DNA of 64,000 nt from Alphaproteobacteria bacterium (GCA_014237925.1 JABACB010000001.1:32374-96373); one strand, 5' to 3'. Shown: positions 2,390 to 47,201, numbered from the stretch's first letter. Translations and numbers: made by a program. Notes: generated by a model from the letters alone, not told the origin.

Positions 2390-3064
2390 ATGGCAAACGA
2401 CCCCGCCACGACATCTCCTGCCAAATCGACTCCGTTGGCGACTCCGTTGGCGACCTCGCTGGCGACCCCGTTGGCGACCCCACTGATGCCGAAGGCGACG
2501 GCGGTTTGGCTGATCGACAACACGGTGCTCACCTTTGCGCAGATCGCCGAGTTCTGCGCGTTGCATCCTTTGGAGGTGCAGTCGATCGCCGACGGCGAAA
2601 CCGTCGCAGGCATCGCGGGCGTCGATCCCGTGCGCAATCGCCAGATCACGCAGGAAGAGCTCGATCGCTGCCTCAAGGATCCGAGCGCGCGTCTGCAGCT
2701 CTTGGAGACCGCTCTGCCCGTTCCCCAAGAGCGCGTGCAAGGACCGCGCTACACGCCGCTGGTCAAGCGGGTTGCCAAGCCTGATGCGATCTTGTGGTGT
2801 CTGAAGAGCTATCCCGATCTTGCCGATGCGCAGATCATCAAGCTCATCGGCACGACGAAAACGATGATCAACACGATCCGTACGCGCTCGCATTGGAACA
2901 TGCGCAACTTGCAACCGCGCAACCCCGCCGATTTGGGGCTCTGCACTTACAGCGAGTTGCAGCGAGCCGTTGAGAAAGCAGAGCGCAACAAGAAACGCGA
3001 ACGCGAAGAGCGTGCGCGTCAAGAGAAAGCAGAGGCGGCGAAAAGTCTTGCCGCCGAACGATAG
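2390..3064 (+). CDS. DUF1013-family conserved alphaproteobacterial protein
   Basis: MPKATAVWLIDNTVLTFAQIAEFCALHPLEV core matches DUF1013 proteins. The N-terminus carries an in-frame PLATPLAT repeat. Confidence 0.65.
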   Translation: MANDPATTSPAKSTPLATPLATSLATPLATPLMPKATAVWLIDNTVLTFAQIAEFCALHPLEVQSIADGETVAGIAGVDPVRNRQITQEELDRCLKDPSARLQLLETALPVPQERVQGPRYTPLVKRVAKPDAILWCLKSYPDLADAQIIKLIGTTKTMINTIRTRSHWNMRNLQPRNPADLGLCTYSELQRAVEKAERNKKREREERARQEKAEAAKSLAAER

Positions 3065-3074
3065 TGCGGAGACG

Positions 3075-3833
3075 ATGGGCGGCGTTGACGTTGGTGTCGG
3101 CGTTGGTGCCTGCGTAGCGCGCCCCGCGCGACATGCTTCTTCCATCGAGGGCAGACTCAACGCCGAGACCGCTTCTGGCATTAAGGCTTGGGTTTTTGAT
3201 CTCGACAACACGCTCTATCCACACCACTGCAACCTTTTTGAGCAGATCGACCGTCGCATGGGCGGCTTCATCGCAGACAAACTGAGATTGCCGCCCGACG
3301 ATGCGCGAAGCTTGCAAAAAGGCTTGCTTCGAGATTACGCGACCACCCTGCAGGGGCTGACGAGTCGCTACGGCATCGACGCGCACGAGTTTCTTTCGTT
3401 TGTCCACGACATCGACTACGCCTGCGTTCCCGCCAATCCTCAATTGGCGGGCTTGTTGGCGGACTTGCCAGGGCGGAAGATTGTTTTTACGAATGCGACG
3501 ACCCGTCATGCCGAGCGGGTGTTGGACAGGCTCCAAGTTCCGCGCGAGTGTTTCGATCACTTCTTGGATATTGCGGCGATGGAATTTCGACCCAAGCCGC
3601 ATCGTGCTTGTTACGACGCGCTTTTGACTCATTGTCGGGTGGCAAATCCGCGTGAGGTCGTGATGTTTGACGACTTGCCGTCGAATTTGAAGACGGCGCA
3701 CGAGTTGGGAATTGCGACTGTTTTGATCGATACGCCGTCGCGGTATGGGCGTTTTGTCGGGGACGAGCGTTATATCGATGCGGTGGCGGAGAATGTCGAG
3801 AGCTTTCTTGAGGGCGCTCTAGGATTTTCCTAG
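3075..3833 (+). CDS. HAD-superfamily pyrimidine 5'-nucleotidase
   Basis: HAD motif I FDLDNTLY. C-terminal MFDDLPSNL/GIATVL motifs. Start at the in-frame ATG at 3075 inside the longer 2970 ORF. The TAG stop lies inside a ctagaattttc tandem repeat. Confidence 0.65.
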   Translation: MGGVDVGVGVGACVARPARHASSIEGRLNAETASGIKAWVFDLDNTLYPHHCNLFEQIDRRMGGFIADKLRLPPDDARSLQKGLLRDYATTLQGLTSRYGIDAHEFLSFVHDIDYACVPANPQLAGLLADLPGRKIVFTNATTRHAERVLDRLQVPRECFDHFLDIAAMEFRPKPHRACYDALLTHCRVANPREVVMFDDLPSNLKTAHELGIATVLIDTPSRYGRFVGDERYIDAVAENVESFLEGALGFS

Positions 3834-3923
3834 AATTTTCCTAGAATTTTTCTGGGGCTTTTTACGGGCGCAAAACATCGCGCGCGTAGCACGCGGGGGA
3901 AGTGGGGGGACGAGTCCCTCCCC

Positions 3924-4604
3924 CTACAGCACGCCGTAAGAGAGCAGCAGCTGCCTCGTTTCAAACAAGGGCAACCCCACCACCGCGCTATGCGACCCGT
4001 TCAACGCACGCACAAACCCCTCTCCCTCTCCTTGTATTCGATAGCCCCCTGCGCTTTCCCGCCACTCTTGCGAATCGACATACTTTTCGATCTCGCGCTC
4101 CGTCAAACGTTTGAAGGCAACCCGCGTCAGCCGCCAGCGCAGATTGCTGCGGCGGTCGTCGCAGACGACGATGCTCGTCCATACCTGATGCCGTCTGCCG
4201 CTGAGTTTTTGTAGAAACTCTTTCGCCTGCTCTCGATCGCGCGGCTTGCCGAGGATCCGTCTTGCGCAGACGACCGCCGTATCGGCAGCCAGCAGGCACA
4301 ACCCGTCGGAAAGAAGCACGCCCTCTTCGGCAAGCTGACGTTGCGCCTCGTCAGCTTTGCTGCGTGCAAGCCGTGCGACCAGCAGGCGCGGCGTCTCTTG
4401 GCGCAAAGGTCGCTCGTCGATGCAAACGGCTTGCAGCCTGTGCGGACGCACGCCCAAACGCTCGAGCAAGCAAAGACGTTGCTTCGATGCGGAAGCCAGC
4501 ACGAGCGCCGTCTTCTCGCCATGCTTGTCACATGGCGAGTTACATGGCTTGTCGCCATGCTTGTCACATGGCGAGTCTCTTTTCGAGATGCCGCCCTCCG
4601 TCAC
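3924..4604 (-). CDS. maf: Maf-like nucleoside triphosphate pyrophosphatase / septum formation protein
   Basis: LVLASASKQRL...LLERLG Maf signature. No in-frame ATG, so an inferred GTG start at 4602-4604 overlapping the UPF0262 stop (GTGA). The N-terminal extension contains a 21-bp direct duplication. Confidence 0.7.
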   Translation of the reverse strand: MTEGGISKRDSPCDKHGDKPCNSPCDKHGEKTALVLASASKQRLCLLERLGVRPHRLQAVCIDERPLRQETPRLLVARLARSKADEAQRQLAEEGVLLSDGLCLLAADTAVVCARRILGKPRDREQAKEFLQKLSGRRHQVWTSIVVCDDRRSNLRWRLTRVAFKRLTEREIEKYVDSQEWRESAGGYRIQGEGEGFVRALNGSHSAVVGLPLFETRQLLLSYGVL

Positions 4605-5164
4605 AAGCGCAGATAGAGCATGGCGATCAGCGTGAAAAGACGGCGTGCGCTTGCATGGTCGGTCTCGATCTTGCCTGTCAGCTGCTCGACCAACAATATC
4701 GCCCCCTCGTCGTGCAGTCCGCGCCGCGCGGCGTCGATCGTCTCGATCGTCGAGGGCGAATGCTTTTTGACCGCGTCGTAGTAGCTCTCGCAGATCTGAA
4801 AATAGTCGCGCACGATCTTGCGAAAAGGCGCGAGCGAAAGGAAGATGCGTCCCTGTTCCTCGCCGTGCGTGCCTGCGATCTCGAAGACAAGCCTTCGCTC
4901 TTCGACGCGCAAGCGCAAGCGAAAAGGTCCTGACCACACGGCTTTCTTCTTGTCGTCCTCGCCCTCACAACAAGGACGGAACACATTTTGCGCGATCAAA
5001 TCGTGGATCGCAATCGCACGCTCGCGCTCGACGGCAACGCTGCGCTGACCGAGCGTTTGTTCGTCCAATGCGATGTCTTCGATGCGATCTTCCGCAGAGG
5101 AAGCATCGACAGAATTGTCTGCTGGATTGTCGACAGAATTGTCTTCGGGCGTATCAGGTGTCAC
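4601..5164 (-). CDS. UPF0262 family protein
   Basis: ERERAIAIHDLIAQNVF...LSLAPFRKIVRDYFQICESYYDA...RRGLHDEGA...TARRLFTL matches the UPF0262 family. N-terminal in-frame DNSVDNPADNSVD repeat. Confidence 0.7.
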   Translation of the reverse strand: MTPDTPEDNSVDNPADNSVDASSAEDRIEDIALDEQTLGQRSVAVERERAIAIHDLIAQNVFRPCCEGEDDKKKAVWSGPFRLRLRVEERRLVFEIAGTHGEEQGRIFLSLAPFRKIVRDYFQICESYYDAVKKHSPSTIETIDAARRGLHDEGAILLVEQLTGKIETDHASARRLFTLIAMLYLRL

Positions 5165-6479: not shown

Positions 6480-6488
6480 CCCCTCGTC

Positions 6489-7241: not shown

Positions 7242-7265
7242 AAGGGCGAAAAAAGGCGGCGAAAG

Positions 7266-7418
7266 AGAAGGGTGGCGAAAGGGTGGCGAAAGGGTGGCGA
7301 AAGGATGGGTTGACTCTTATAAGAAATCGCGTTACACAAAGGAAGACAAGGTCGAAAAGTGAAAACGAAGAGTGGAAACGAAGAGTGGAAACGAAAAGTG
7401 AAAACGAAAAGTGAAAAC
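7266..7418. repeat. two adjacent tandem arrays upstream of hisG and rpsT: gggtggcgaaag x4 and a 14-bp gtggaaacgaagag-like unit x5
   Basis: Direct reading of the hisG–rpsT divergent intergenic region. Confidence 0.9.
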
Positions 7419-7453: not shown

Positions 7454-7903
7454 ATGGCGAATAGCCCGTCTGCACGCAAGCGCATCCGACAGACTCTAAA
7501 GCGCACCGCTCGCCATGGAGCGCGTCGTAGCCGAGCGCGGCGCTTCGTACGCTTCTGCGAAGAAGCCATGGCGAGCATGGCGCGCTCGACAGCTCCTTCT
7601 GCCAAAGAGTTGGCGAAGGACAAGGCGAAGGACAAGAAGACAGCCAAATCATCCTCCCCCAACAGCGACAAGGGTAGCGACAAGGGTAGCGACAAGAGCA
7701 CGGACGAGGGTTCTGCCCCCATCTCGCTGGACGAGCACTTTCGCCGCGCGACGGCGGAGCTGTATCGCGCCGCTCAAAAAGGCGCGCTCCATCGAAAGGC
7801 AGTCGCGCGCAAGGTGTCGCGCTTGTCGAAACGCTTGAAGGCTCTGACGCAAGAAGCAGGCAAAGAAAAAAACCCTTCGACCAAGGACGCGCCGCGCGCA
7901 TGA
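7454..7903 (+). CDS. rpsT: 30S ribosomal protein S20 with internal low-complexity insertion
   Basis: MANSPSARKRIRQ N-terminus and a conserved S20 C-terminal helix. A roughly 60-aa K/D/S-rich insertion (SDKGSDKGSDK) is encoded by a 12-bp repeat. Confidence 0.8.
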   Translation: MANSPSARKRIRQTLKRTARHGARRSRARRFVRFCEEAMASMARSTAPSAKELAKDKAKDKKTAKSSSPNSDKGSDKGSDKSTDEGSAPISLDEHFRRATAELYRAAQKGALHRKAVARKVSRLSKRLKALTQEAGKEKNPSTKDAPRA

Positions 7904-9015
7904 CCCTGGCAAGCTTAAGGGCGCGGAGGGGGGCGGCGAAAAGGGTTGTCGACAGAGTTTTCAGCGTGAGCGCAAGGACGGCTCGTCTTTCCGTCCTTCT
8001 GCTTGCAACCTCCCTGCTTCTCGTCTCGTGCGCGAAGGACAGGAAGCAAGTCGGCGGTGGACGCGGTGCCGTGCGCGTCAGCTCCGGCGATGTTATCCTC
8101 GATCCGCGTTTCTCGGTCTTCTTGTCCAAAGCCTACTTCGCGGTCGCCTCCAGACGCGAGGCGGTCAAGCGCGTCAAGCTGATCAAGAAAGGACGCCGCG
8201 CCGCACGCGGAGAGATCGTCGATCCTGTCGCAGTCAAGCGCGGCAGACGATGGAGAAACGAGGATACCGCATGGGTCAGACAACAACGACAAAAGCTCGA
8301 CGCTCTGCTGGCAACGGTCGCCGGCGACAACACGGCGATGTTCGCCTCGGCAGCCCTTGCGCAAGCCAACTTCGACTGCTGGTACTACGAGATGTACAAA
8401 GCCCCTCTCACCTCGCGCAACAGCGCGTGCGCCTTGGACTTGGCAGCAGCACTGGGTGCGGTGCAGGCACGAGCTGCGGGCGGACAGCAAACATTTCCGA
8501 GCAGGGAAAATCTGTCCGGTGCCATCGCGCGTCCGGGCGCACAACAGGGTTTTGCAACAGGACAACAATTCTCCCTCTTGAAACGCTATTTGGAACAGAG
8601 GGATATCGATACTCTTCTGATGTTGCTCCAGCGGGGCGACACCGACATGAGGGCGGTCGTCGAAAAACTCGTGCAGCAGGAGCTGCAACAAACCCCGGGC
8701 GGTGCGCCCTTGCCCGTGTGGCAGATCACCTTCAAGGGGCAGAAGCGCAAGCTCGCCAGGAAAGAAAAGAGGACGATCAAACGAATCGCCGAGTGGTACA
8801 AGACGCAAGAGGGGAGCGTTAATGTTCGTATCGAAGCCTCCAGCCTCGATTCTGATCGTGTCGAGGCGATCGTAGCCGCTCTTGTCGGACGCGGCGTTGC
8901 CGAAAAATCGCTGCTCTACGGCGAGAGCGTCGGCAGCGAAGGGGGAGCAGGACAAATTACACCAGGACAAGTCATTCTTCGCGCACAACGTTCCACTTCG
9001 AGCGTAGAGCCATAA
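7900..9015 (+). CDS. lipoprotein with degenerate OmpA-like C-terminal domain
   Basis: Signal peptide with LLLVSC lipobox. C-terminal NVRIEASSLDSDRVEAIVAALVGRGV...GESVG resembles the OmpA peptidoglycan-binding domain. Confidence 0.45.
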   Translation: MTLASLRARRGAAKRVVDRVFSVSARTARLSVLLLATSLLLVSCAKDRKQVGGGRGAVRVSSGDVILDPRFSVFLSKAYFAVASRREAVKRVKLIKKGRRAARGEIVDPVAVKRGRRWRNEDTAWVRQQRQKLDALLATVAGDNTAMFASAALAQANFDCWYYEMYKAPLTSRNSACALDLAAALGAVQARAAGGQQTFPSRENLSGAIARPGAQQGFATGQQFSLLKRYLEQRDIDTLLMLLQRGDTDMRAVVEKLVQQELQQTPGGAPLPVWQITFKGQKRKLARKEKRTIKRIAEWYKTQEGSVNVRIEASSLDSDRVEAIVAALVGRGVAEKSLLYGESVGSEGGAGQITPGQVILRAQRSTSSVEP

Positions 9016-9117: not shown

Positions 9118-9340
9118 ACGGGGGAATTGCACGGGGGAATTGCACGGGGGAATTGCACGGGGGAATTGCACGGGGGATTGGGGGATTGCGTTAAGCTCTC
9201 GATGGGGAGTCTACAAGAAGATGACCATGCCACACAGCGAAGCCACCAGCGATACAAGCCAGCGATACAAGTCAGAGGCGACTAGGCAGAGGAGTCTTGA
9301 AGGAGGGCTTGAGGGGGTCTTGAGAGAGGGCTTGCCGGAA
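9118..9340. repeat. cluster of tandem repeats upstream of lpxC: cgggggaattgca x4, agcgatacaag x2 and tcttga(g/a)gg units
   Basis: Direct reading. Confidence 0.85.
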
Positions 9341-9369: not shown

Positions 9370-10449
9370 ATGAGAGCGGCAGCAGATGCGGCAGTAGGCG
9401 GCGAAAGCGTCGGATCGAGCGTCTCCGCCGAGAAGGCGGGATTGGAAGCCTGGGAAGGAACGCTCGCGCGCCCCGTCTCCCTCAAGGGTCTTGGCGTGCA
9501 TTCGGGACGCGATGTCTGTGTCGCGTTGCGTCCGAAGGAGCCGGGTTTTGGGATCGTGCTTCGCAGGACCGATCTTGCCAACGGACAGCGCGACATTCCC
9601 GTGCACTACGAGCGCGTCGAGCCGCGACGCTTGTGTACGAAAGTTGTCAATGACGCGGGCATGGCGGTCTCGATGGTCGAACATCTCATGTGCGCGCTCG
9701 CGATTGCGCAAATCGACAATCTTCTCGTCTTGCTGGACGCCGACGAGCTTCCCATCCTCGACGGCAGCGCAGAGCCGTGGCTCAAGGCGATCTTCGATGT
9801 CGGCGTCGTTCGACAAAACAAACCCCGACGCTACTTGCTGGTAAGCAAACCCGTCGAGGTGCGAGAAGGCGACCGCTTCTGCCGTCTCCTGCCCTTTTCG
9901 GAAGGAACGGAAAGCCTGCCTTTCTCCGCAACGGCGACAGATCCGTTGTCTCATCCAAAATTGTCCCAGCCCGAGCTGTCCCAGCCCGAGCTGCCCCAGC
10001 CCGAGCTGTCGCATCCCATGCTGTCCGTAGATTTTTTGATCGACTTCCCGCACCCTGCGGTCGGACAGCAGCGTCTGCAATTTGCGCCCTGCTCGCGTGG
10101 CGCGTGGCGCGAAGGGATCGCGTCTGCGCGAACCTTTGCCTTCAAGGAAGAAATCGAACAACTGAGGAAGCAGAACTTCGCCCTGGGCGGTTCGCTCGAC
10201 AACGCCGTTCTTGTCGACGATCAGGGCATCGTCAATTCGGAAGGACTGCGCTACAAGGACGAGTTTGTTCGCCACAAGGTTCTCGATCTCTGCGGCGATC
10301 TCTACCTCGCCGGCATGCCGATCGTGGCGCGTGTGGAGGCTTGCAAATCAGGGCATCGGCTCAACAATCGCCTTCTCCACGCCCTGTTTCAGGATACGCA
10401 AGCATGGCGCGAGGCGCATCTGCCTTCAGCAACCCCCTCCTCTTTTTAG
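9370..10449 (+). CDS. lpxC: UDP-3-O-acyl-N-acetylglucosamine deacetylase
   Basis: Full LpxC homology (GLGVHSG, HKVLDLCGDLYL). An in-frame 15-bp x3 repeat insertion (LSQPELSQPELPQPEL) sits at 9955-10015. Confidence 0.85.
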   Translation: MRAAADAAVGGESVGSSVSAEKAGLEAWEGTLARPVSLKGLGVHSGRDVCVALRPKEPGFGIVLRRTDLANGQRDIPVHYERVEPRRLCTKVVNDAGMAVSMVEHLMCALAIAQIDNLLVLLDADELPILDGSAEPWLKAIFDVGVVRQNKPRRYLLVSKPVEVREGDRFCRLLPFSEGTESLPFSATATDPLSHPKLSQPELSQPELPQPELSHPMLSVDFLIDFPHPAVGQQRLQFAPCSRGAWREGIASARTFAFKEEIEQLRKQNFALGGSLDNAVLVDDQGIVNSEGLRYKDEFVRHKVLDLCGDLYLAGMPIVARVEACKSGHRLNNRLLHALFQDTQAWREAHLPSATPSSF

Positions 10450-10527
10450 GAAGGGGAGCAGGGCGGTAGCCGTAGGGCGTTGTTGCGCGAAGAAGATCTG
10501 TTTTTTGAATCTCTAAACGCAAGGCGG

Positions 10528-10586
10528 TGCAAAATGCGGCTGGGGAGACTCGAACTCCCATGCTGTTGCCAGCGGCAGATTTTGCA
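10528..10586 (-). ncRNA. tRNA-like minihelix (T-arm plus acceptor stem, no D or anticodon arms) inside an extended hairpin
   Basis: Minus strand reads GCCGCTG-(10 nt)-GGGAG TTCGAGT CTCCC-CAGCCGC-A. That is a canonical T-stem and loop with a paired acceptor stem carrying one C-C mismatch. It is flanked by complementary TGCAAAAT/ATTTTGCA. Confidence 0.35.
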
Positions 10587-11037
10587 TCCTCCCACGGCTT
10601 TCGCCGCCCTCAGGCACGCACGACGGCGACGCCCAAGGTTCGGAGGCTGGACTTTCCCTTCGCCATGAGCCCAGCATTTGCATGCAAGCTTTTAGGCGAG
10701 CGCCGTCAAGTCTCTACACCTTCCTCGTCGCTCGCGCCGCTACAGAGCGTGCAACAAGGCTTGGCACGGGATTGGCATCGCTCTGGGGAGGAAAATCCTC
10801 CGTTCGAGCGCAAAGCGTTCCCCGTTTTTGACGCTTGCTCACCGCACGGTTTCCCGTGCGGGGACCCATGTTTTCCGCTCTTCTCCCTCCTTCTCGTCAA
10901 AGGTTCTTTGCCGAGAGAGCAGGGCGGGAGGGAACTTCGAGTCTGCTGCGTCTACCGATTCCGCCACAGCCGCAGCCGCACACCACTACTAACACGTCGG
11001 CGTTGCAACGGCAACAACTATTGGCGATGTTAGGGGC

Positions 11038-23608: not shown

Positions 23609-23627
23609 TTGGCTCTTGTGGTTCAGC

Positions 23628-31679: not shown

Positions 31680-32534
31680 ATGGCACCGCCGCAAACAAAC
31701 TGGGCGCAGGTCGTCTGGCGCAAGAACGACACGCCTTACGCGCCAGCGTACGACGACGGCTATTTCGGAGAAACCGACCCCGCAGCAGAGGCGCACCATG
31801 TTTTCTGCAAGGGATTAGCCCTGCCCGACGCATGGAAGACCTTCTTCGAAGACAAAACAACCTTTCGCATCGTCGAGCTGGGATTCGGCACAGGACTCAA
31901 CTTTCTGCAAACAGCGCAACTATGGCAAAAATGGCAGGAAAAATGGCAGGAAAAGACGCAGAACGAAGGCACCGTCGAGAACAAGCCTCTTTTGGATTAC
32001 TGGGGCATCGAAGCCCATCCCTTGCGCGTCAAAGACTTGCAGCACTTCTACCGTCGCCACGAGGTGTGCGGCGCAGGCAACCTGTTGCAGGCGTGGAAGG
32101 GGTTGCCAACTTCTGTCGCCAACAACCCCCGCCTCCCCCTCCGCAAGCACACGCTGCGCTGGGAGTTCGCGCCCTCGATCCGCCTCACCTTGTTGTTGCA
32201 AGATGTCGAGCGCGCGCTTGCAAGCATCGTTGCAACCCTTGCGCACGAGGTCGACGGGTGGTACTGCGACGGTTTTGCGCCACGATCCAACCCTGCCATG
32301 TGGAGCGACAAGGTGTTCGCCGCCCTCGCGTACTGTACGCGTGCGCGTACGTCCTTCCCGCAACTCGCCAGCTTTTCGGTCGCAAAAAGCGTACGGACAA
32401 GGGCGAACGCTTACGGATTTCACACGCGCAAAAGAAAGGGATGGTGCGCAAAAAGAGAGGTGCTGCAAGGATTCTTCAGAGGAAACCTCACCCCTCCCGT
32501 GAATTCGACACAGAGTTCGACACAACAAGCATGA
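31680..32534 (+). CDS. MnmC-like tRNA methyltransferase domain protein (DUF752), stand-alone
   Basis: FGETDP...ELGFGTGLNFL SAM-MTase motif. In-frame WQKWQEKWQEK repeat. TGA overlaps the ATG of the next gene (ATGA). Confidence 0.6.
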   Translation: MAPPQTNWAQVVWRKNDTPYAPAYDDGYFGETDPAAEAHHVFCKGLALPDAWKTFFEDKTTFRIVELGFGTGLNFLQTAQLWQKWQEKWQEKTQNEGTVENKPLLDYWGIEAHPLRVKDLQHFYRRHEVCGAGNLLQAWKGLPTSVANNPRLPLRKHTLRWEFAPSIRLTLLLQDVERALASIVATLAHEVDGWYCDGFAPRSNPAMWSDKVFAALAYCTRARTSFPQLASFSVAKSVRTRANAYGFHTRKRKGWCAKREVLQGFFRGNLTPPVNSTQSSTQQA

Positions 32535-33712
32535 CGCTCGAAAATGTTGCCGTCGCAAATGTTGCTGTCGTAGGTGGCGGTATCGCAGCCTTCGCCGCGC
32601 GCAGTGCCTTGCGTGCTGCGGGCTTTCGAACGCTCGCCCTTGTCGGAACAGAACCGCCCGTCGCTCCCGAACGCCTGCTCGTCTGCCCGCGTCTGCAACG
32701 CGGAGAAAGTGCTTACGCGCGTTTCTTGCGCGACGCCTACCGAGAAGCCTGCGCCTTCTACGAACGATCACCGCACAACAAAGCGATCGTAGCACGCGGC
32801 GCGTTGCGACTGCCACAAAGCGCAGAAGAGCAAAAACGCTGGCGTGCGCTCGCACAGGAGCTGCCGAATCTCTGTCGCTGGCTGAGCGCGAGCGAGGCGC
32901 AACGCAAGAGCGGGTTGCAAAAAAACGCCGCGCGCTGGGGAGGAATCTTGTTGCCCCACGCGCTCGTCCTTCAACCCCGACGATTGTGGGAGCAAGACGA
33001 GACGACCCTTAAGGTTAGCGTCACGCGCACGACACAAGAGGCGGACGGAAGCTGGAGGCTTGTTGCAAAGAACGAAGAAGGCGAGCAAAAAATCTTGAAG
33101 GCAGAAGCGGTCGTGCTTGCGCTCGGCGCGCATCTCCCTGCTTTCCTTCAAGAAAGCGTCTTCGCGCGCTCCTTGCCTCCCTTGAAAAACTTGCTCGCTG
33201 CTTTGCAGAAGGGTCGCGGGCGAATCGACATCTGCGACAGGGCTGCCTTGTCCTGCCCGCCGCTGTTGCCCGTGTGCGCTTCAGGATGGGTCATGGCGTA
33301 TCCGCGTGCGCGTGTAGGGGTTGTGCGCGGAACCGCGCCTTCGCGCGCGCACGAGGGGGAGCATGAAAACCGCAAGCGGCTCCATCAATGGTGCGGACTG
33401 CCCGTCTCCGAGATGAGCGCGACGGAGGCGCGCTTCAAAAAACCTTTCGAGAAGCCTTTCGAGAAACCCTACGAAGCCTCGCGCTTGTCTACGCGCGACC
33501 GCCTGCCTTTGTTGGGAGAGATTCCTTGCAACGGAAACAACAAGTCGAGCCGCCTCTTCTTGTTTGCCGGCTTGGGCGGACACGGCTTCCTCACCGCGCC
33601 CTTGTGCGCGCAAAAACTCGTCCGCCTGTTGCAGAGACACGACGCGATGTCTGTGCCAGCCGAGACGACCCTTCTTTCTCCGCAGAGGTTTTTGTCGTCC
33701 CCCCGCCGCTAA
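32531..33712 (+). CDS. MnmC-like FAD-dependent oxidoreductase domain protein (DAO family), stand-alone
   Basis: VAVVGGGIAAFAAR Rossmann FAD motif and C-terminal GLGGHGF. In-frame KPFEKPFEKPYE repeat. Confidence 0.6.
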   Translation: MTLENVAVANVAVVGGGIAAFAARSALRAAGFRTLALVGTEPPVAPERLLVCPRLQRGESAYARFLRDAYREACAFYERSPHNKAIVARGALRLPQSAEEQKRWRALAQELPNLCRWLSASEAQRKSGLQKNAARWGGILLPHALVLQPRRLWEQDETTLKVSVTRTTQEADGSWRLVAKNEEGEQKILKAEAVVLALGAHLPAFLQESVFARSLPPLKNLLAALQKGRGRIDICDRAALSCPPLLPVCASGWVMAYPRARVGVVRGTAPSRAHEGEHENRKRLHQWCGLPVSEMSATEARFKKPFEKPFEKPYEASRLSTRDRLPLLGEIPCNGNNKSSRLFLFAGLGGHGFLTAPLCAQKLVRLLQRHDAMSVPAETTLLSPQRFLSSPRR

Positions 33713-33718
33713 GCCCTC

Positions 33719-34957
33719 TCAGGCGGCGGCATGGGCGAGCGCGCCTCGATCTTCCTTGATCGGATAGTGAAAGGCGGCGGCGATCAAGCCCAGCAGCACG
33801 GCGAGCCACCACATCGGATCGTAGCTGTGGAAGGTGCGGAAGATCACGCCGCCAAGCCACGCGCCGAAGAACGAGCCAATCTGGTGCGAGAGAAAAACGA
33901 TGCCGTAGAGCATCGCCATGTTCGGCGCACCGAAGAAGGAAAGCACCAGCCCGCTCGTCGGCGGCACCGTGCTGAGCCACAGCAATCCCATCATGCTGGC
34001 AAAAATCGCCGCCGTCAGAGGCGTCTTGTCCGCGAGCAAGAACAAGACGATCACCACAGAGCGCAGCGTGTAGATAAGGGTCAGAATCGTCTTCTTGCGC
34101 ATGATTCTGCCGCCCAGCCAGCCGCTCAACAGCGTGCCGAAAATGTTGCCCAGCCCGATCAATGCCAGCGCCGTCGTCGCCGCAGAGCGCGGAAGACCGA
34201 TATCGTTAAAGTAGCTCGGAAGATGCGTTGCGACGAAGACAACTTGAAAACCACAGACAAAGAATCCTGTTGTCAGCAACAGATAGCTGCCGTGGCGCGT
34301 CGCTTGCGCAAAGGCTTTCACCGCAGGGAGGGAAGGGCGTGAAGAACGTTTGCGCTCGGCAAGCGCAAACGCGCCCGGCAGCATCGAGAGCGCGCACAGC
34401 GCGAGCAGCGCGCAAGCGACGGGCAGCTCGAAGTTGGCGAGCGCAAAGCCCTCCAGAGGAACGACGACAAACGCGCCCACAGAGCCTGCCGTTGAGACAA
34501 GACCCAACCCCATCGCTTGGCGAGCAGGAGGAGCTGCGCGCGACAGCGCACCGAAGACGACACCGAAGGTCGTCGCGGCAAGCGCGATACCGATCAGCAT
34601 TTGTCCGCTGTAGAAACCCAAGATCGAATGTCCCATCAAGCCTAGCCCCGTCGCGTAGCACAAGGCGCCCAGTGCCGCCACACGACCCGCGCCGTAACGA
34701 TCGGCGAGCGCACCGCAAAAAGGCGATGCCAAGCCCCAAAGAAGATTTTGAATCGCTACCGCGAGCGAAAAACTGCCGATGCTCAACCCGACCGCGTTCG
34801 ACAAGGGAGCGGCAAAAAGTCCGAACCCATGCCGCAACCCCATGCCCCAAAACAAAAGCCAAATGCCTCCTGCCAGCACAAAAAGCCACCGATGCCCACC
34901 GCTCGCCTCGTCTCTTGTATACTCTCTTGTCATGGTTCCTTCTCTTGTTCGGGGCAA
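33719..34957 (-). CDS. MFS transporter
   Basis: 12 predicted TM helices with the MFS GxxxDRxG-like motif (GALADRYGAGRV). Confidence 0.75.
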   Translation of the reverse strand: MPRTREGTMTREYTRDEASGGHRWLFVLAGGIWLLFWGMGLRHGFGLFAAPLSNAVGLSIGSFSLAVAIQNLLWGLASPFCGALADRYGAGRVAALGALCYATGLGLMGHSILGFYSGQMLIGIALAATTFGVVFGALSRAAPPARQAMGLGLVSTAGSVGAFVVVPLEGFALANFELPVACALLALCALSMLPGAFALAERKRSSRPSLPAVKAFAQATRHGSYLLLTTGFFVCGFQVVFVATHLPSYFNDIGLPRSAATTALALIGLGNIFGTLLSGWLGGRIMRKKTILTLIYTLRSVVIVLFLLADKTPLTAAIFASMMGLLWLSTVPPTSGLVLSFFGAPNMAMLYGIVFLSHQIGSFFGAWLGGVIFRTFHSYDPMWWLAVLLGLIAAAFHYPIKEDRGALAHAAA

Positions 34958-38955: not shown

Positions 38956-40215
38956 CTAAGCGGTTTTGCCGACCAGCGCGCAATGCGCTTTCTTGCCGAT
39001 CGAGAGCACTGTCTTTTCTTGCGGTTTCAAGAACAGAAGTGCCTGTTCGTCCGAGACGGTCTTGCCGTCCTGTCGCACGCCGCCTTGTCGGATCAGCCGT
39101 CGTGCCGCGCTGTTGCTGGCGACCAACCCCACTTCTTTGAGAACCTCATAGACGAAACGACTGTCTGCGAAAGCGACCGTGCGCTCGCTTGCGTGCGAGA
39201 GATCGCCTTCGGCGAAGATTTTTTCGGCGCGCAGATGTTCTTCTTCGGCGACCTTGCTACCGTGGCACAGGGTTGTGATTTCGGTTGCAAGACGAATCTT
39301 CGCTTCGTTCAGCTCTTTGCCTTGCAGACGTTCGAGGCGTCGAATCTCTTCCATCGGCAGCTCGGTGAAAAGCCTCAGGAAGCGACCGACATCGGCATCG
39401 GCGCTGTTGCGCCAAAACTGCCAAAAATCGTGCGACGAGAGCTTTTCGCGGTTCAGCCACACGGCACCCGTTGCCGTTTTGCCCATCTTTTCGCCCGTTG
39501 CGGTTGTCAGCAGAGGGGTTGTGAGGACGAAGCTTTCGGCGCGTTCGACGCGGCGGATCAGATCGATGCCGCAGAGAATGTTGCCCCATTGGTCCGAACC
39601 ACCCAGTTGCAGGCGACAATTCTCGCGGCGGTAGAGTTGCAGGAAGTCGTAAGCTTGCAGCACCATGTAGTTGAATTCTAGGAAGCTGAGCGGCTGGTCG
39701 GCATCCAGACGGCTGCGCACGGATTCGACCTTCACCATGCGATTGACCGAGAAGTGTTTGCCGTACTCGCTCAAAAAGTCGAGCCAAGAGATATCGTTGA
39801 GCCACGCGGCGTTGTCGACAAAGGCGACGCGGGAGGGGGAGGAGGGGGGGGAGGCAGCTTCGTCTTGCAGCAGTCTTGTGAAGAGGCTTTCGAGAACTTG
39901 CGTGTTGCAGACGATGTCTTTCGTATCGAGCATGCGTCGCTGACTGTTTTTTCCTGAAGGATCGCCGACGCGTGTCGTGCCACCGCCCAACAGGACGATC
40001 GGGCGGTGTCCTGTTTTTTGCAGCCATCGAAGCAGCATGATTTGGATCAGCGAGCCAACATGCAATCCGTCGGCGGTCGCATCGAAACCGATGTAGGCGG
40101 AGACGCTTTCGCGCGCCATGAGCGCGTCGAGCGCCTGCCAGTCGTTGCAGTCCTTGAGAAAGCCGCGTTCGGCGAGCGTGCGCAAAAAGTCTGAGCGGAG
40201 GGTGTTTTGTTTCAT
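38956..40215 (-). CDS. tyrS: tyrosine--tRNA ligase
   Basis: GFDATADGLHVGS (HIGH), EKMGKT (KMSKS) and a C-terminal S4 domain. An in-frame insertion contains a G8/C8 homopolymer at about 39844-39851. Confidence 0.9.
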   Translation of the reverse strand: MKQNTLRSDFLRTLAERGFLKDCNDWQALDALMARESVSAYIGFDATADGLHVGSLIQIMLLRWLQKTGHRPIVLLGGGTTRVGDPSGKNSQRRMLDTKDIVCNTQVLESLFTRLLQDEAASPPSSPSRVAFVDNAAWLNDISWLDFLSEYGKHFSVNRMVKVESVRSRLDADQPLSFLEFNYMVLQAYDFLQLYRRENCRLQLGGSDQWGNILCGIDLIRRVERAESFVLTTPLLTTATGEKMGKTATGAVWLNREKLSSHDFWQFWRNSADADVGRFLRLFTELPMEEIRRLERLQGKELNEAKIRLATEITTLCHGSKVAEEEHLRAEKIFAEGDLSHASERTVAFADSRFVYEVLKEVGLVASNSAARRLIRQGGVRQDGKTVSDEQALLFLKPQEKTVLSIGKKAHCALVGKTA

Positions 40216-41749: not shown

Positions 41750-42367
41750 TCAGACCCCGTGGCGGTAGGTGTCCGCGCGCAACGCGCCCGCGCGCCATGC
41801 GCCCGAAGCGCCGCCGCGCTTTTCGAGCAAACGAATATCGGTGATTTGCATCGCGCGATCGACCGCCTTCAACATGTCGTAGACGGTCAATGCTGCAACC
41901 GAGACCGCCATCAGCGCCTCCATCTCGACGCCCGTCTGCCCTTGCGTGCGGCATTCCGAAAAAACCCAAACCTTCGAACCCTCAAGACGCAAAGAGACGG
42001 AAACCTGACTCAAGGGCAGAGGGTGACAAAGAGGCACAAGCGCACTCGTCTGCTTTGCTGCCATGATGCCCGCAAGCTGCGCCGTTCCCAAAACATTGCC
42101 CTTCTCCGCCTTTTGCGTCGCAAGAACGCTCGCGCCTTCCGCCGAAAGCAACACGCATGCTTGCGCGCGCGCGAAACGTTTCGTCGTCTCCTTGCCCCCC
42201 ACATCGACCATGCGCGCTCCTCCCGCGCCGTCGCTGTGCGTCAGGCGCGCGAGTCCTTGTGCTTTTTGCCCTCGTGCTTTTTGCCCTCGTGTTTCTTGCT
42301 CTCGCGTTTCTTGCTCTCGCGTTTCTTGCTCTCGCGTTTTTTGCTCTTGCGTTTCTTCTTTTGCCAT
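41750..42367 (-). CDS. moaC: cyclic pyranopterin monophosphate synthase accessory protein MoaC
   Basis: LTHSDGAGGARMVDVGGK...GVEMEALMAVSVAALTVYDM MoaC core. N-terminal in-frame EQETREQETREQETRGQKARGQKA repeat (15-bp units). Confidence 0.85.
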   Translation of the reverse strand: MAKEETQEQKTREQETREQETREQETRGQKARGQKAQGLARLTHSDGAGGARMVDVGGKETTKRFARAQACVLLSAEGASVLATQKAEKGNVLGTAQLAGIMAAKQTSALVPLCHPLPLSQVSVSLRLEGSKVWVFSECRTQGQTGVEMEALMAVSVAALTVYDMLKAVDRAMQITDIRLLEKRGGASGAWRAGALRADTYRHGV

Positions 42368-42371
42368 AGAA

Positions 42372-43235
42372 CTAGCCTCGAAGGGCAGCCTGCGCAAAGG
42401 CTGCAACGCATCCTTGCGTATCGTCGCTGCGCATGATCGCCTCGCCGACCAAAAACGCCAACGGCGCAGTCCGCGCCGCCAAGAACGGAAGAAGATCATC
42501 AGGCTTGCGCAAGCCGCTCTCGGCAACCGCAAGGCGATCGTCGGGAACACGCGAGACCATCGCCGCCGCGCGCACGAGATCGATCGAAAGGCTTTGCAAG
42601 TCGCGCGCATTCACACCGATCATCAAGGCTTGCAAGTGGCGAACGGCGACCTCCAGCTCTTCTTCTCCGTGCACCTCGACCAACACATCCATGTCGAGCT
42701 CCAAGGCGAGCGCCTCCATCTCTTGGGCTTGCTTCGCCTCCAAAAAACGCATCACGAGCAGCACGCAGTCTGCTCCCATCGCGCGCGCCTGCCAAATCTG
42801 CACAGGATCGATGAGAAAGTCTTTGCGCAAAACAGGAAGGCGAGAAGCAGCACGCACCTGCTCCAGATCGTGGCAGCGCGCGTGAAACCACGCGCGGTCG
42901 GTCAGAACCGACAGGCACGCAGCCCCGCCGCGCTCTAGATGTTGCGCCGTCTCTGCGGGCGACCCGTAAGAACGGAGCGCACCTGCGGAAGGCGAGGCGC
43001 GCTTGCTCTCGCAAATGAGCGCCGCCTGTTTGTGCGACAAGCGCTGCAACAGCGCGCGTCGAAAGCCGCGCGGGGACTCTTGTTCGCGTGCCTGCTCTCT
43101 CAACAGAGATCGATCGCAGGCAAGCAAGGTTGCGCACTCCTCGCGTTTTGCGGCAAGGATGCGCGCAAGCAAGCCCTCTCCGCCAGCCCCAGGAGATTTC
43201 TCAGGCGCCTTGCTGTGTGATGTTCTTGACAGCAT
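42372..43235 (-). CDS. trpC: indole-3-glycerol phosphate synthase
   Basis: ILAAKREE start region and LRKDFLIDPVQI, GADCVLL motifs. The exact start is uncertain. Confidence 0.8.
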   Translation of the reverse strand: MLSRTSHSKAPEKSPGAGGEGLLARILAAKREECATLLACDRSLLREQAREQESPRGFRRALLQRLSHKQAALICESKRASPSAGALRSYGSPAETAQHLERGGAACLSVLTDRAWFHARCHDLEQVRAASRLPVLRKDFLIDPVQIWQARAMGADCVLLVMRFLEAKQAQEMEALALELDMDVLVEVHGEEELEVAVRHLQALMIGVNARDLQSLSIDLVRAAAMVSRVPDDRLAVAESGLRKPDDLLPFLAARTAPLAFLVGEAIMRSDDTQGCVAAFAQAALRG

Positions 43236-44280: not shown

Positions 44281-44285
44281 TCTAT

Positions 44286-44396
44286 CGTTATTCGGTACTC
44301 TGTTGTTATCCGTTACTCTGTCGTTACTCTTGTTCGTTACTCTTGTTCGTTACTCTTGTCGTTACTTTTGTCGTTACTTTTGCGTTACTTTTGTCG
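44286..44396. repeat. tandem repeat, 12–13-bp unit gttactcttgttc x about 8 between trpD and trpG
   Basis: Direct reading. Confidence 0.9.
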
Positions 44397-45027
44397 CCAT
44401 TTTTGCGTGTTCGAGACAAAAGTCGACGAAGTTGGCAAGGATGCGCTCTCCGTGTTCGCACGCGATGCTTTCGGGGTGGAACTGCACGCCGAAGAGCGCG
44501 TGTTCTCGGTGCGAGAGTGCCATGACAACGGCTTCCTCGTCGTCGCTGACGGCATCGACGCGCAAGATTTCAGGCAACGAGATTTTCTCGACGACAAGCG
44601 AATGGTAGCGCGTGGCTTGGAAGGCGTTCGGCACGTCTCGAAACAGAGGACTTTCCCCATCGTGTCGCACGGCGGAAGTTTTGCCGTGCATGAGATGTTT
44701 CGCACGCACGACCTCGCCGCCGCAGCTCTGCGCAAGGCACTGCATGCCCAAGCACACGCCCAGCATGGGCGGTGCCGTCTTGCCCTCACGCCCCCGCGCC
44801 TGCAACGCCTGCGGCAAGGCGAGCGAGATGCCAGCCCCCTCAGGTCGTCCAGGACCCGGCGAGACGAGCACGCCGCAAGGGTTCAACGCCAACACCTCTG
44901 CCACGCTCATCTTGTCGTTGCGCACGACAAGCACGCTTCCTTCGTCCATCGCACGATGCTTCGCTACGGCTTGGTACAGGTTCCAAGTGAAACTGTCGTA
45001 GTTGTCGATGAGAACGACAAAAGGCAT
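44374..45027 (-). CDS. trpG: anthranilate synthase component II (glutamine amidotransferase)
   Basis: MPFVVLIDNYDSFTWNLYQ start and the GVCLGMQ catalytic Cys motif. The longer ORF upstream is a run-on. Confidence 0.8.
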   Translation of the reverse strand: MPFVVLIDNYDSFTWNLYQAVAKHRAMDEGSVLVVRNDKMSVAEVLALNPCGVLVSPGPGRPEGAGISLALPQALQARGREGKTAPPMLGVCLGMQCLAQSCGGEVVRAKHLMHGKTSAVRHDGESPLFRDVPNAFQATRYHSLVVEKISLPEILRVDAVSDDEEAVVMALSHREHALFGVQFHPESIACEHGERILANFVDFCLEHAKMATKVTQK

Positions 45028-45077
45028 GTCAAGCGACAAGGCGAGCGTTGCAGAGGAAACAAGGGCGCGATTTGTTG

Positions 45078-45722
45078 TCAGGCTGCCGATTTGGCATGCG
45101 TTTGTCGAATGTACTCGGCGGTAGCCTGCTCCAGCTCGCTCAAGTGTCGCGAAAAAAGATGATCCGCAGACTTGATGCAACGAAAAACAACCCGAACCGC
45201 CTTGTGGCAGATCAAAGTCTGTTGTAGCTGCGCAATATGAGCGTAGGGAATCAGCTCGTCTTGCTCGCCGTGCAGAACGAGCCCATCGACGGGACAAGGG
45301 TTGAAAAAGGAGAAATCGTAGCGGCGCTCAGGAAGTCCGGCGACGACGAAGCGCGCGATCTCGGGACGGCGCATCAAGAGCTGCAAAGCGACCCACGCGC
45401 CGAAGGAAACGCCGCCGATCCAGCACGGCGTCACCCCTTCGCTGCGATCCTGAAGCCAATCCAACGCCGCCGCCGCATCGGCGATCTCTCCTTCGCCCAA
45501 CTCGCTGCGACCGTCGCTGCGTCCCACGCCGCGAAAGTTGATCCGAAGGCAGCCGAAGCCCTGCCGTGCGAAAGCGCGATACAGCGTATAAACCGCCTTG
45601 CTGTCCATCGTGCCGCCTTGCACAGGGTTCGGATGCAAAAGCAGAACAACAGGCGCACAAGGCGCTCCTTGATGCAGCCGTCCCTCGAGACGACCGCTCG
45701 GACCATTCAAAACGATGTTCAT
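45078..45722 (-). CDS. alpha/beta-fold hydrolase (esterase-like)
   Basis: GVSFGAW nucleophile-elbow (GxSxG), 214 aa. Confidence 0.55.
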   Translation of the reverse strand: MNIVLNGPSGRLEGRLHQGAPCAPVVLLLHPNPVQGGTMDSKAVYTLYRAFARQGFGCLRINFRGVGRSDGRSELGEGEIADAAAALDWLQDRSEGVTPCWIGGVSFGAWVALQLLMRRPEIARFVVAGLPERRYDFSFFNPCPVDGLVLHGEQDELIPYAHIAQLQQTLICHKAVRVVFRCIKSADHLFSRHLSELEQATAEYIRQTHAKSAA

Positions 45723-45842
45723 CTTCTTCTTTCGTCCTTACTTTTTTCTCGCAAATCTCTAGTATGCGTCCATAGGATCCATTCTAGCAGATTTTTGCCG
45801 AAGGGTTGTAAGGGTTAAAACAAAAATCACCGAAAACAGACT

Positions 45843-47201
45843 ATGCACCCCGCTGCCGAGACCTTCTACTTGGACGAAAACGCCACCGCACCGCTACGCG
45901 ACGAGGTGCGCGCGGGGATGCAAGCGGAAATGCAAGCAGAAATGCAAGAGGAAATGCAAGCGGGGCAGCAAGCAGGGCAGCAAGCGGAAATGCAAGCAGG
46001 GCAGCAAGCGAGACAGCAAGCGAGACAGCAAGCGGTGTGGCGCGATACGGGAAACGCCTCGTCGGTGCATAGCTTCGGCAGAAGGGCGCGCGCAAAAATC
46101 GAGGCGGCACGCGAGTGTATCGCACAAAAACTCGAAGCGAGCATCGAGGGCATCGTCTTTACAGGCAGCGGCAGCGAAGCCAACGCGCTCGCCTTGCACG
46201 ACAAGACGCGATTTTTCTGCTCGAAGGCAGAACACGCTTCCGTCCTCGAATGGCAGCCGAAGGACAAAAGAGCGACCCCCGAAATAGCGACGCAGAGCCT
46301 AGAGCGCGAACAGAGACTCGTGCCGCTTTTGCATACGGGGGTCGTCGATGTGAAAGCCTTGCAAACGATGCTCGACGACGCGCCCTCGCCGCCGCAGTTG
46401 GTCTCCGTCATGGCAGCCAACAACGAGACGGGCGTCGTGCAGCCCATCGAAACCATTGCCGAGATATGCCGTGCGCACGCCGTTCCTTTCCACTGCGACG
46501 CAACTCAGGCGGTGGGAAGGTTGCCCGTCTCGCTCAAGGCGTGGGGCGCAGACATGCTCACGCTCTCGGCGCACAAGCTCGGAGGACCGCAAGGGGTGGG
46601 CGCGCTCGTCTGCACAACCGAGGCGCGCACGCGATTAGTGCCGCTGTTGCGCGGTGGAGGGCAGGAGGGGGGCTTGCGAGCAGGCACCGAGAATGTGACC
46701 GCCATCGTAGGATTTGCAACCGCCTTGAACTTCGCCTGCCAAGAACTCGCGCGTATGGGGGAGATGCAAGCCAAAAGAGATGCCTTCGAACAAGAATTGC
46801 GTGCGCGAATCGAAGGGGTGCGTGTCGCGGGATTCGAGGTATCGCGTTTGGCGAACACTTCGTGTTTTGTCCATCCGCGTCTTTCCGCAGAGGTGTTGTT
46901 GATGTTGTGCGACGGCGAGGGAATCGCGCTCTCGTCTGGCGCGGCGTGTTCGTCGGGAAAGGTTGCCCCCAGCCATGTCTTGCGTGCAATGGGCTTCGAC
47001 GAGGCTTCGTGCAGGCGCGCAATCAGGGTTTCGTTCGGCTTGCGCACGCGCGAGGGAGCGCTGGACGCGCTGCTCGACTTGCTCGCGCGCAAGGAGAATA
47101 GCGAGAAGAGGGATGAGACAAGGATGGAGACAAGGATGGAGACAAGGATGGAGACAAGGATGGAGACAAGGGCGGAGAAAAGGGGAGAGGCTGTCGCGTG
47201 A
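45843..47201 (+). CDS. cysteine desulfurase (NifS/IscS family) with repeat insertions
   Basis: Class-V aminotransferase fold with the SAHKLGGPQG PLP-Lys motif. N-terminal in-frame (MQAEMQAGQQARQQ) 15-bp x8 repeat and C-terminal RMETRMETRMETRMET repeat. Confidence 0.8.
   Translation: MHPAAETFYLDENATAPLRDEVRAGMQAEMQAEMQEEMQAGQQAGQQAEMQAGQQARQQARQQAVWRDTGNASSVHSFGRRARAKIEAARECIAQKLEASIEGIVFTGSGSEANALALHDKTRFFCSKAEHASVLEWQPKDKRATPEIATQSLEREQRLVPLLHTGVVDVKALQTMLDDAPSPPQLVSVMAANNETGVVQPIETIAEICRAHAVPFHCDATQAVGRLPVSLKAWGADMLTLSAHKLGGPQGVGALVCTTEARTRLVPLLRGGGQEGGLRAGTENVTAIVGFATALNFACQELARMGEMQAKRDAFEQELRARIEGVRVAGFEVSRLANTSCFVHPRLSAEVLLMLCDGEGIALSSGAACSSGKVAPSHVLRAMGFDEASCRRAIRVSFGLRTREGALDALLDLLARKENSEKRDETRMETRMETRMETRMETRAEKRGEAVA

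Follow-up and report, generated by a model that had tools for sequence, protein, structure and literature searches.

Short tandem arrays are strongly over-represented in a 64-kb piece of an alphaproteobacterial chromosome (GC ~58%; referred to here as the window, meaning the whole stretch of 64,000 bases), where they crowd the spacers between genes and recur, in frame, within conserved housekeeping proteins. The arrays exceed chance expectation, preserve the reading frame in genes, lie outside folded cores, are largely lineage-specific and differ by whole units between closely related strains. These patterns were interpreted, with a probability of roughly 0.8, as the outcome of frequent replication misalignment throughout the clade to which the window belongs, coupled with purifying selection acting on reading frame, hydrophobicity and placement; we infer both a slippage mechanism and a raised rate, rather than tolerance alone. 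An earlier note on this DNA had described frame-preserving repeats in many essential proteins, 15 of which it named, and had proposed either relaxed selection or a high slippage rate.

Fifty-four genes were called with a self-trained codon model, and two open reading frames (ORFs) were added (10527–11033 and 53818–54555); coding sequence accounts for 59,737 of 64,000 bases (93%), leaving 4,263 non-coding bases and a widest spacer of 354 bp. Pfam scans and the codon model upheld the identity of all 15 named proteins, and every repeat peptide quoted for them was located, among them STPLATPLATSLATPLATP of TrcR, DNSVDNPADNSVD of UPF0262, SDKGSDKGSDK of S20, LSQPELSQPELPQPELSHP and the run of nine valines of RseP. 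Arrays were identified with Tandem Repeats Finder (TRF) at score thresholds of at least 30, 50 and 80, those of at least 50 being termed strong, and the chance level was set by second-order Markov and triplet shuffles of the window. At these thresholds the window contained 81, 38 and 17 arrays respectively, against 15, 0.4 and 0.1 in the shuffles, and many arrays showed 90–100% matches between units. A few weak TRF matches are due to chance, and two matches considered as young repeats, in an MFS gene (34385–34427) and an HhH-GPD gene (49520–49547), were rejected as conserved sequence. For outside comparison, a further 158 pnp loci from Alphaproteobacteria were used, amounting to 2.28 Mb. Strong arrays occurred at 5.9 per 10 kb in the window and 1.02 per 10 kb in that set, a difference of approximately 6-fold, while the corresponding densities at a score of at least 80 were 2.7 and 0.19. 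At a score of at least 50, comparable densities were seen in two metagenome-assembled genomes that are the nearest species representatives, L001 (JABAAA010000059; 6.7 per 10 kb) and L002 (CBDCGG010000002, a 1.6-Mb contig; 5.9), with values of 5.2 and 2.8 in two further clade members, L163 and L162.

The strong arrays were concentrated outside genes. Seventeen of 38 fell within the 4,263 non-coding bases and 21 within 59.7 kb of coding sequence, that is, ~40 and 3.5 per 10 kb, an 11-fold difference approximately; the phenomenon is genome-wide rather than a trait of essential proteins, on which the emphasis had been placed previously. Arrays covered 1,081 non-coding bases (25%) and were present in 17 of the 28 spacers that measured 40 bp or more. 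The largest, between uppS and cdsA, had 11.1 copies of a 14-bp unit (23455–23609); other examples of strong non-coding arrays were found by TRF at 1544–1623, 7268–7308, 7353–7418, 9118–9188, 25144–25219, 30235–30322, 51990–52044, 52066–52103 and 61674–61720. No tRNA or Rfam family was matched anywhere in the window, and the intergenic arrays are therefore not known RNA elements.

Period length separated the two classes of array. The period was a multiple of three for 20 of 21 strong coding arrays and for only 4 of 17 intergenic ones (Fisher p = 5e-6; binomial against 1/3, p = 4e-9), in agreement with the earlier claim that the repeats keep frame. The 20 in-frame arrays had periods of 3, 9, 12, 15, 18 or 21 bp, and those of the intergenic arrays were mostly 11, 13 or 14 bp; the single coding exception was a 14-bp array (817–893) over the 3' end of UDG, encoding its last residues. 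In their head-to-tail, near-identical copies above chance, and in the restriction of in-gene periods to multiples of three, the arrays resemble variable number tandem repeat (VNTR) or minisatellite loci. The peptides encoded by arrays were also distinctive, being 78% polar and 12% hydrophobic (54% and 33% in the window proteome) and wholly lacking F, Y and C. Coding arrays are those that passed a frame filter and a second filter for polar peptides at a terminus or loop; that essential proteins seemed to be singled out is a side effect. As a rough estimate, if spacers are treated as neutral and a third of all new arrays preserve the frame, approximately one quarter of the in-frame arrays would survive in genes.

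Structural placement was assessed from PDB alignments to solved homologues and from AlphaFold2 (AF2) models built on clade alignments. Arrays occupy N-terminal extensions ahead of the Pfam domain in TrcR, UPF0262, HisG, Dxr, MnmC and MoaC, and C-terminal tails in PNPase, cysteine desulfurase 1, GlyS and S2; the inserts of LpxC, UppS and S20 fall between aligned blocks of solved homologues. In AF2 models of cysteine desulfurase 1 and LpxC, the core exceeded a predicted local distance difference test (pLDDT) score of 90, while the inserts scored 43–59. Insertion in loops, as the earlier note had anticipated, was thereby supported both by the alignments and by the low-confidence segments of the models. 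Lineage-specific, low-complexity inserts outside the folded core were recognized in cysteine desulfurase 1, LpxC, MoaC, TrcR, TruB, UppS and S20; the S2 tail and the poly-valine run of RseP were not of this kind.

Among the N-terminal extensions, that of the cell-cycle regulator TrcR (DUF1013; 2390–3064, plus strand) bears 4.6 copies of a 12-bp unit (STPLATPLATSLATPLATP, aa 13–31; 2427–2481) ahead of a Pfam domain beginning at aa 61. This array was not present in a 91% identical homologue (P0245); another homologue (P0247, 90% identity) carries a C-terminal array of approximately 10 SPADE/SPAGE units, ~55 residues long, where the window protein has its N-terminal PLAT units. UPF0262 (4601–5164, minus strand) has 3.2 copies of a 12-bp unit at aa 8–20 (DNSVDNPADNSVD; 5106–5143), its domain starting at aa 26, and Dxr has 3.1 copies of a 12-bp unit (NTPPVTPPVAPPV; 22546–22582, minus strand) without counterpart in L002. 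In MoaC (41750–42406, minus strand), 6.1 copies of a 15-bp unit (42266–42357) encode four EQETR units plus degenerate ones at aa 17–47, ahead of a domain that begins at aa 66; they were not found in L162 or L163. The TrpC of L163 carries five ESQTP units of its own. MnmC was represented by two ORFs on the plus strand (31584–32534 and 32531–33712). TRF identified NDTE x2.6 (31650–31680) and QKWQE x2.3 (31927–31961) in the methyltransferase ORF, the first of these N-terminal and not in L001 or L002, and LENVAVANVAVV (32538–32570) and PFEKPFEK (33443–33465) in the oxidoreductase ORF. The PFEK duplication was specific to the window, relatives having a single FEKPFE or FEKSYE with no adjoining tandem copy. 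The two ORFs, encoding the methyltransferase and the FAD oxidoreductase, overlap by 4 bp; MnmC takes this two-ORF form in the window, L001 and L002, and both are among the least conserved genes of the clade (62–67% identity).

Internal inserts were equally diverse. Ribosomal protein S20 (7454–7903, plus strand; 149 aa, start corrected by hand) contains two 12-bp arrays (LAKDKAKDK and SDKGSDKGSDKSTDEG; 7612–7711) in an insert of ~45 aa between helix 1 and helix 2, such that 54 residues (aa 42–95) stand in place of nine (aa 42–50) in the S20 of P. aeruginosa. In LpxC (9370–10449, plus strand), an LSQPE array of 4.3 copies of a 15-bp unit (9962–10026, TRF) lies within a 40-aa insert located between residues 151 and 153 of E. 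coli LpxC. The insertion site is common to the clade; LSQPE is private to the window, other members having PPIL, GMSQ or MTPP, and the LpxC N-termini across the clade likewise present an assortment of different arrays. The AF2 model (mean pLDDT 84.9) placed the LpxC insert as coil (pLDDT 44–59) between strands E169–174 and E218–225. UppS (23628–24542, minus strand) has three small arrays (ESQASQAS, NGNSSSNG and ENDENDEN; 23988–24090) in an internal insert of ~30 aa, where aa 143–185 match residues 122–134 of E. coli UPPS, and the insert in L002 occupies the same site with other units, NGANKNGANKNG. A comparable situation was observed in TruB (30352–31524, minus strand), where seven copies of a 9-bp unit (30755–30817, TRF) sit in an internal insert filled differently in relatives, by EDGGGEDGGE in L001 and ESSEESSEKSSEES in L002; outgroup TruB alignments spanning the insert had 28–59 gap positions, mostly 33–45. 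TyrS (38956–40215, minus strand) has 2.6 copies of a 9-bp unit (SPPSSPS; 39832–39854, TRF) that include the G8 tract reported previously, located at 39844–39851, and relatives are 3 aa shorter at this point.

The first of two cysteine desulfurases (45843–47201 and 47198–48394, plus strand) carried arrays at both ends. Approximately 10 copies of a 12-bp unit (MQAE/GQQA, aa 26–65; 45918–46035, TRF) follow helix 1, and 6.2 copies of another 12-bp unit (47111–47183, TRF) form a C-terminal tail of RMET units, four of which are seen in the peptide. The N-terminal array was missing from 17 of 17 aligned homologues, and both arrays were missing from 11 of 11 clade relatives (70–79% alignment identity) and from outgroups. 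Relatives bear other arrays instead: ATQD in P0001, one to four copies of NQNQA in the close trio P0004–P0006, and TTSE, SSPA and VSAS in P0014. In the AF2 model (mean pLDDT 83.7), the N-terminal array was predicted as a helical extension (pLDDT 43–58) and the C-terminal array prolonged the terminal helix. The repeats listed in the earlier note had been placed between 2428 and 47178, which held for all but that of GlyS (58526–60772, minus strand), whose 15-bp array (KDKQQ x3; 58497–58573, TRF) lies beyond this range. The GlyS array outruns its gene and reaches into the glyS-ppdK spacer; the TAA stop codon within it is one base removed from a unit codon, and the array carries on afterwards. Similarly, seven copies of a 12-bp unit (44281–44405, minus strand) occupy the entire trpG-trpD spacer and provide the trpG stop codon, and no obvious Shine-Dalgarno sequence was seen ahead of trpD within this array. 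Since arrays straddle the gene ends of trpG and glyS, C-terminal tails can lengthen or shorten through stop-codon changes inside arrays.

Several of the segments listed in the earlier note proved to be of another kind. The duplication in Maf (3924–~4604, minus strand), described as 21 bp, has a 36-bp period with 25 bp exactly repeated (SPCDKHGDKPCNSPCDKHGEK; 4516–4576) and lies in or upstream of the N-terminus; the start is ambiguous between GTG 4604, which forms a GTGA overlap with the UPF0262 stop codon, and GTG 4502, and the duplication is coding only if the former is used. The V9 run of RseP (20221–21291, minus strand) lies in transmembrane helix 1, right before HEMGH (valine codons at 21230–21257), and is also present in L002; it had been counted as an insertion, yet the N-terminus that contains it is equal in length to that of E. 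coli RseP, and the run is therefore of a substitution type.

The S2 tail, previously listed as a slippage-derived tail of 100 aa, was found to be much older. Rich in K, D, E and T (26218–26571 within S2, 26215–27348, minus strand), it contains a clear young array only at 26249–26275 (RDTKQDTKQD). No clade member lacks the tail, and an ITVVKKK-like core is conserved in it. Beyond the GNDD anchor, 31 of 107 outgroup S2 proteins likewise continue for at least 100 aa; many of these tails have repeats of their own and one (P0266) has a similar stretch, TTVVVEKKVKRK. On these alignments the tail is ancient and widespread in Alphaproteobacteria, the window copy being merely decorated by small arrays. 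The true S2 start is probably ~28–38 codons downstream of the called start.

Nor was the PNPase tail confined to the window. PNPase (27475–29808, minus strand) ends in six (D)DRRGGGG units (21-bp x5.6, aa 725–767; 27509–27634) containing C8–C10 homopolymers, and a tail of the same type is found in L001 and L002 with differing copy number. Tail length is 84–91 residues in these three clade species, whereas the median for 155 other alphaproteobacterial PNPases is 24, short RG- or RD-rich tails being common elsewhere; at least two RGG motifs were present in just 2 of 160 comparison tails, and clustered RGG motifs are conserved among the window's relatives. Judged from sequence comparison, the tail is a clade-shared expansion of a short ancestral one, and is possibly functional. 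An unrelated PNPase (L118, JGI24796J26693_1004756; 56% identity) has an 89-residue tail of DGHRDGPR repeats of its own, and that locus had the top array density among the control loci.

The clade itself is a deep-branching alphaproteobacterial lineage of ~58% GC, with approximately a dozen members recovered by protein searches and contigs up to 1.50, 1.73, 1.90 and 1.94 Mb; the 1.90-Mb contig would be circular, judging by the '_c' suffix conventionally given by the assembler. The PNPases of all other alphaproteobacteria were at most 63% identical. Within the clade, L002 was syntenic with the window across 22 kb, with proteins 62–97% identical. Sequences exactly matching the PNPase, TrcR and UPF0262 of the window are recorded from an NCBI contig of 183,860 bp; an exact search with S15 gave no match. 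In Joint Genome Institute (JGI) metagenome contigs a TrpD search returned no match and a PNPase search no relative above 63% identity; the clade is absent from these contigs.

Comparison across the clade showed rapid turnover. Comparative data were available for ~14 coding arrays, of which ~10 were private to the window species; those of cysteine desulfurase 1, MoaC, LpxC, Dxr, TrcR and the MnmC N-terminus were missing from relatives (64–91% identity) and from outgroups alike, and so the orthologue alignments bore out the lineage specificity expected of most inserts. TruB and UppS displayed shared sites with differing units, and PNPase a shared array with differing copy number.

Differences between strains took the same form. 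A scaffold ~99.6% identical to the window over 4 kb (L165; European Nucleotide Archive ERZ23490425, SAMN14422895) differed from it at four arrays, among them a gain of 13 bp (one unit) at 7375, of 12 bp (SDKG) in S20 at 7663 and of 45 bp (3x15) at 9005. The last of these sites is at the 3' end of a 371-aa ORF with no Pfam match (7900–9015), where a 15-bp unit is single in the window and present as four tandem copies spanning the stop codon in L165; it may represent the birth of an array or its collapse. Another strain, L081 (ERZ26869290), lacked exactly one 13-bp unit at 52083–52095, and a TrcR variant (P0246) was the window protein minus one PLAT unit (-12 bp) and otherwise 100% identical. 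A further assembly, L164 (SAMN14422896), was one single-nucleotide polymorphism (SNP) apart from the window over 3 kb and upheld both the PNPase array and its C10 tract. All indels of at least 12 bp relative to strains ~99–99.7% identical consisted of whole units, there was no large indel outside arrays, and ORFs stayed open; approximately five array indels were counted against ~26 SNPs in ~10.5 kb of aligned strain DNA. Whole-unit copy-number differences between close strains are a further property of VNTR loci. They also accord with the high slippage rate and strain polymorphism foreseen in the earlier note, being in frame in S20 and TrcR, and the frameshifts that might have exposed pseudogenes on re-sequencing did not appear, since ORFs were intact in independent assemblies. 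The frequency of unit indels relative to SNPs points to a high input of duplications.

A mechanism consistent with these results can be proposed. Tandem duplications of 7–21 bp would arise and change copy number unusually fast in this clade, with slipped-strand or template misalignment during replication as their source. Non-coding DNA would gather arrays of any period, mostly 11, 13 and 14 bp, while survivors in genes would need a period that is a multiple of three and a polar peptide located at a terminus, in a loop joining secondary-structure elements, or where it prolongs a surface helix. Arrays would be born, expand, decay and be replaced, leaving each species with its own set, and permissive sites such as protein termini and the loops of TruB, UppS and LpxC would be struck repeatedly.

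Certain observations weigh against this reading. Intensity is uneven within the clade, L162 having only 2.8 arrays per 10 kb. The strain comparisons rest on short-read metagenome scaffolds, in which repeat copy number may be mis-assembled, and the extra 13-bp units of L165 at 9171 lie beside an N gap and poly-G artefacts. The low-complexity segments of S2 and PNPase are old and probably functional, and not all listed repeats are recent slippage. Inefficient removal of arrays from a small population might likewise account for their high standing density, and any causal gene defect is purely hypothetical.

A rival explanation, in line with the relaxed selection proposed in the earlier note, is that the mutation rate is ordinary and selection alone relaxed, so that a small, host-restricted population fixes the normal products of slippage by drift. 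Clade contigs of ~1.5–1.9 Mb, one flagged as circular at 1.90 Mb by assembler naming, the rarity of clade proteins in public data together with their absence from JGI metagenome contigs, and the many inserts in housekeeping proteins are all compatible with it. It was nevertheless considered rather doubtful, because a sequence that is 93% coding with intact ORFs, save possible changes in a restriction-modification island, is unlike genomes under strong drift, because the frame and hydrophilicity filters imply that selection still acts, and because ~5 array indels against ~26 SNPs in ~10.5 kb point to high input. A selected function for the repeats was thought improbable as a general account. 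By this account, disordered or charged tails, linkers and spacer arms (the putatively RNA-binding RG tail of PNPase and the basic tail of S2 included) would be maintained for their activity, repetitiveness being just how such segments are built; the strong polarity of array peptides would suit it, as would the retention of the PNPase tail in three species at ~90% core identity, the shorter RG-rich tails of unrelated alphaproteobacteria, and the widespread S2 tails with their conserved ITVVKKK motif. Most arrays, however, are private, differ in units at a shared site or vary between near-identical strains, spacers are filled by the same process with arrays of arbitrary period, and there is no motif common to the units.

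It is very unlikely that the arrays are contingency loci serving phase or antigenic variation, or dispersed copies of a mobile repeat. Copy number does vary between strains and some arrays lie just upstream of genes, but coding arrays keep frame and so afford no on/off switching; where repeat changes at contingency loci alter the reading frame or the promoter distance in surface, restriction-modification or virulence genes, the hosts here are cytoplasmic housekeeping enzymes and ribosomal proteins, and the coding arrays do not behave in that way. No transposase or element ends were seen in the window, and array units share no sequence with one another across it; the arrays therefore arose locally, and origin from a mobile element or dispersed repeat was rejected on this ground. 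Assembly or sequencing artefact was given almost no weight, and the frame bias and agreement between independent assemblies rule it out as an origin. Assembly of repeats is difficult, and one comparison scaffold has Ns and poly-G beside an array, but the same arrays occupy the same places in independent assemblies (L164, and L165 and L081 save for whole units), artefacts would ignore the reading frame, and long-read assemblies of related species exhibit an equivalent syndrome.

If misalignment at a high rate is accepted, its cause may be sought in replication or repair. Units of 7–21 bp exceed the loops handled by mismatch repair, and in E. coli and yeast such events are held down by replisome proofreading, single-stranded DNA exonucleases and flap processing. 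It is possible, and suggested only tentatively, that the clade is in a heritable mutator state for tandem duplication, having lost or altered a suppressor of 7–21-bp misalignments (candidates being the PolA 5'-flap nuclease, Xni, RecJ, ExoI, ExoVII, ExoX, DnaQ or another part of the replisome), and is steadily creating new termini, linkers and tails in proteins including those of the ribosome. Replication and repair genes (dnaQ, mutL, ssb and others) were not encountered within the 64-kb window.

Slipped-strand repeats, in-frame bias and VNTR polymorphism are textbook processes, and lineage-wide proliferation is already known from Ehrlichia ruminantium and Portiera. E. ruminantium is AT-rich. 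As described (PMC10710844), it resembles the window in being an alphaproteobacterium with a small genome and many tandem repeats, mainly non-coding, that expand and contract between strains; the same source describes an obligate intracellular organism with ~64% coding sequence and long intergenic regions. By contrast, the window is 93% coding and 58% GC, its spacers are short and yet 25% array, and in-frame arrays occur by the dozens in housekeeping proteins. In Portiera aleyrodidarum of Bemisia tabaci, microsatellites proliferated once genes for replication and repair had been lost (Sloan & Moran 2013, PMC3673631), and here too the burst of short intergenic repeats is lineage-specific (a sister lineage lacks it), strain indels are of whole units and the period spectrum is characteristic. 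Portiera differs in its 7-bp spike, its genome of 0.36 Mb with 69% coding sequence, and its loss of dnaQ, mutL, ssb and others (PMC3673631), whereas periods in the window are broader, 7–21 bp with a mode of 12–14. The window thus shares with the Ehrlichia and Portiera type an intergenic concentration of arrays and their variability between strains, and lacks the expanded spacers and low coding density.

Plasmodium falciparum has species-specific, hydrophilic, repeat-derived inserts in the loops and termini of conserved enzymes, tolerated outside the fold. An indel-prone mutation spectrum has been discussed for that species (PMC5389722). It is, however, an extremely AT-rich eukaryote with Asn/Lys-rich inserts, while the window belongs to a GC-rich bacterium with units of 3–7 residues rich in Q, E, D, K, G and T. 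Bacterial VNTR and minisatellite loci, such as those of M. tuberculosis with their copy-number variation (PMC12817950), resemble the window arrays in unit length (~9–60 bp), whole-unit polymorphism and in-frame bias; typical genomes have tens of such loci per several Mb, and the window ~6 strong arrays per 10 kb. What sets this case apart is the combination of a GC-rich, gene-dense genome of ~1.9 Mb, a broad 7–21-bp spectrum, spacers that are short yet saturated, and an abundance of in-frame arrays within core proteins, among them the strain-variable S20.

Should the density hold across genomes of ~1.9 Mb, the clade would be among the most repeat-saturated of compact bacterial genomes and a GC-rich, gene-dense counterpart to E. 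ruminantium and Portiera. It provides a natural experiment on the in-frame insertions that conserved enzymes and ribosomal proteins tolerate, and shows how C-terminal tails originate from arrays that straddle stop codons. The arrays are ready VNTR markers for tracking strains in metagenomes, and they carry a warning for annotation and binning, given that the start, the stop and the length of a protein can change from one strain to the next. If the clade were indeed a mutator, it would offer a natural bacterial system for the de novo birth of low-complexity segments and for stop-codon migration within arrays; a specific repair or replication defect, if found to be the cause, would raise interest further.

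Other features of the window were recorded alongside the arrays. Between 17894 and 31524, the gene order rpsB-tsf-frr-uppS-cdsA-dxr-rseP-bamA-ompH-lpxD-fabZ-lpxA-lpxI-lpxB directly adjoins pnp-rpsO-truB, an arrangement kept in L002. A pyrH gene, which tsf and frr commonly flank, was not found at that position in the window. A low-GC island (53623–55714; GC 0.48 against ~0.58) lies between glnA and ppdK, and contains a D12-class N6-adenine methyltransferase (54548–55696, minus strand) alongside a 245-aa ORF that matched no Pfam family (53818–54555, minus strand); the two probably form an acquired restriction-modification pair. In L162 this position is taken by another ORF, of 407 aa, and in L163 it is empty; strain L081 has four single-base indels in the island methyltransferase together with an inverted contig end. 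Lastly, the 64 kb contains 44 homopolymer tracts of at least 7. Coding homopolymers of 10 include C10 in pnp (27572–27581, encoding Gly), A10 in the mnmC methyltransferase ORF (31642–31651) and C10 in a PGM-like gene (50103–50112). Coding tracts are potential frameshift hot spots; the C10 tract of pnp was unchanged in the independent assembly L164.

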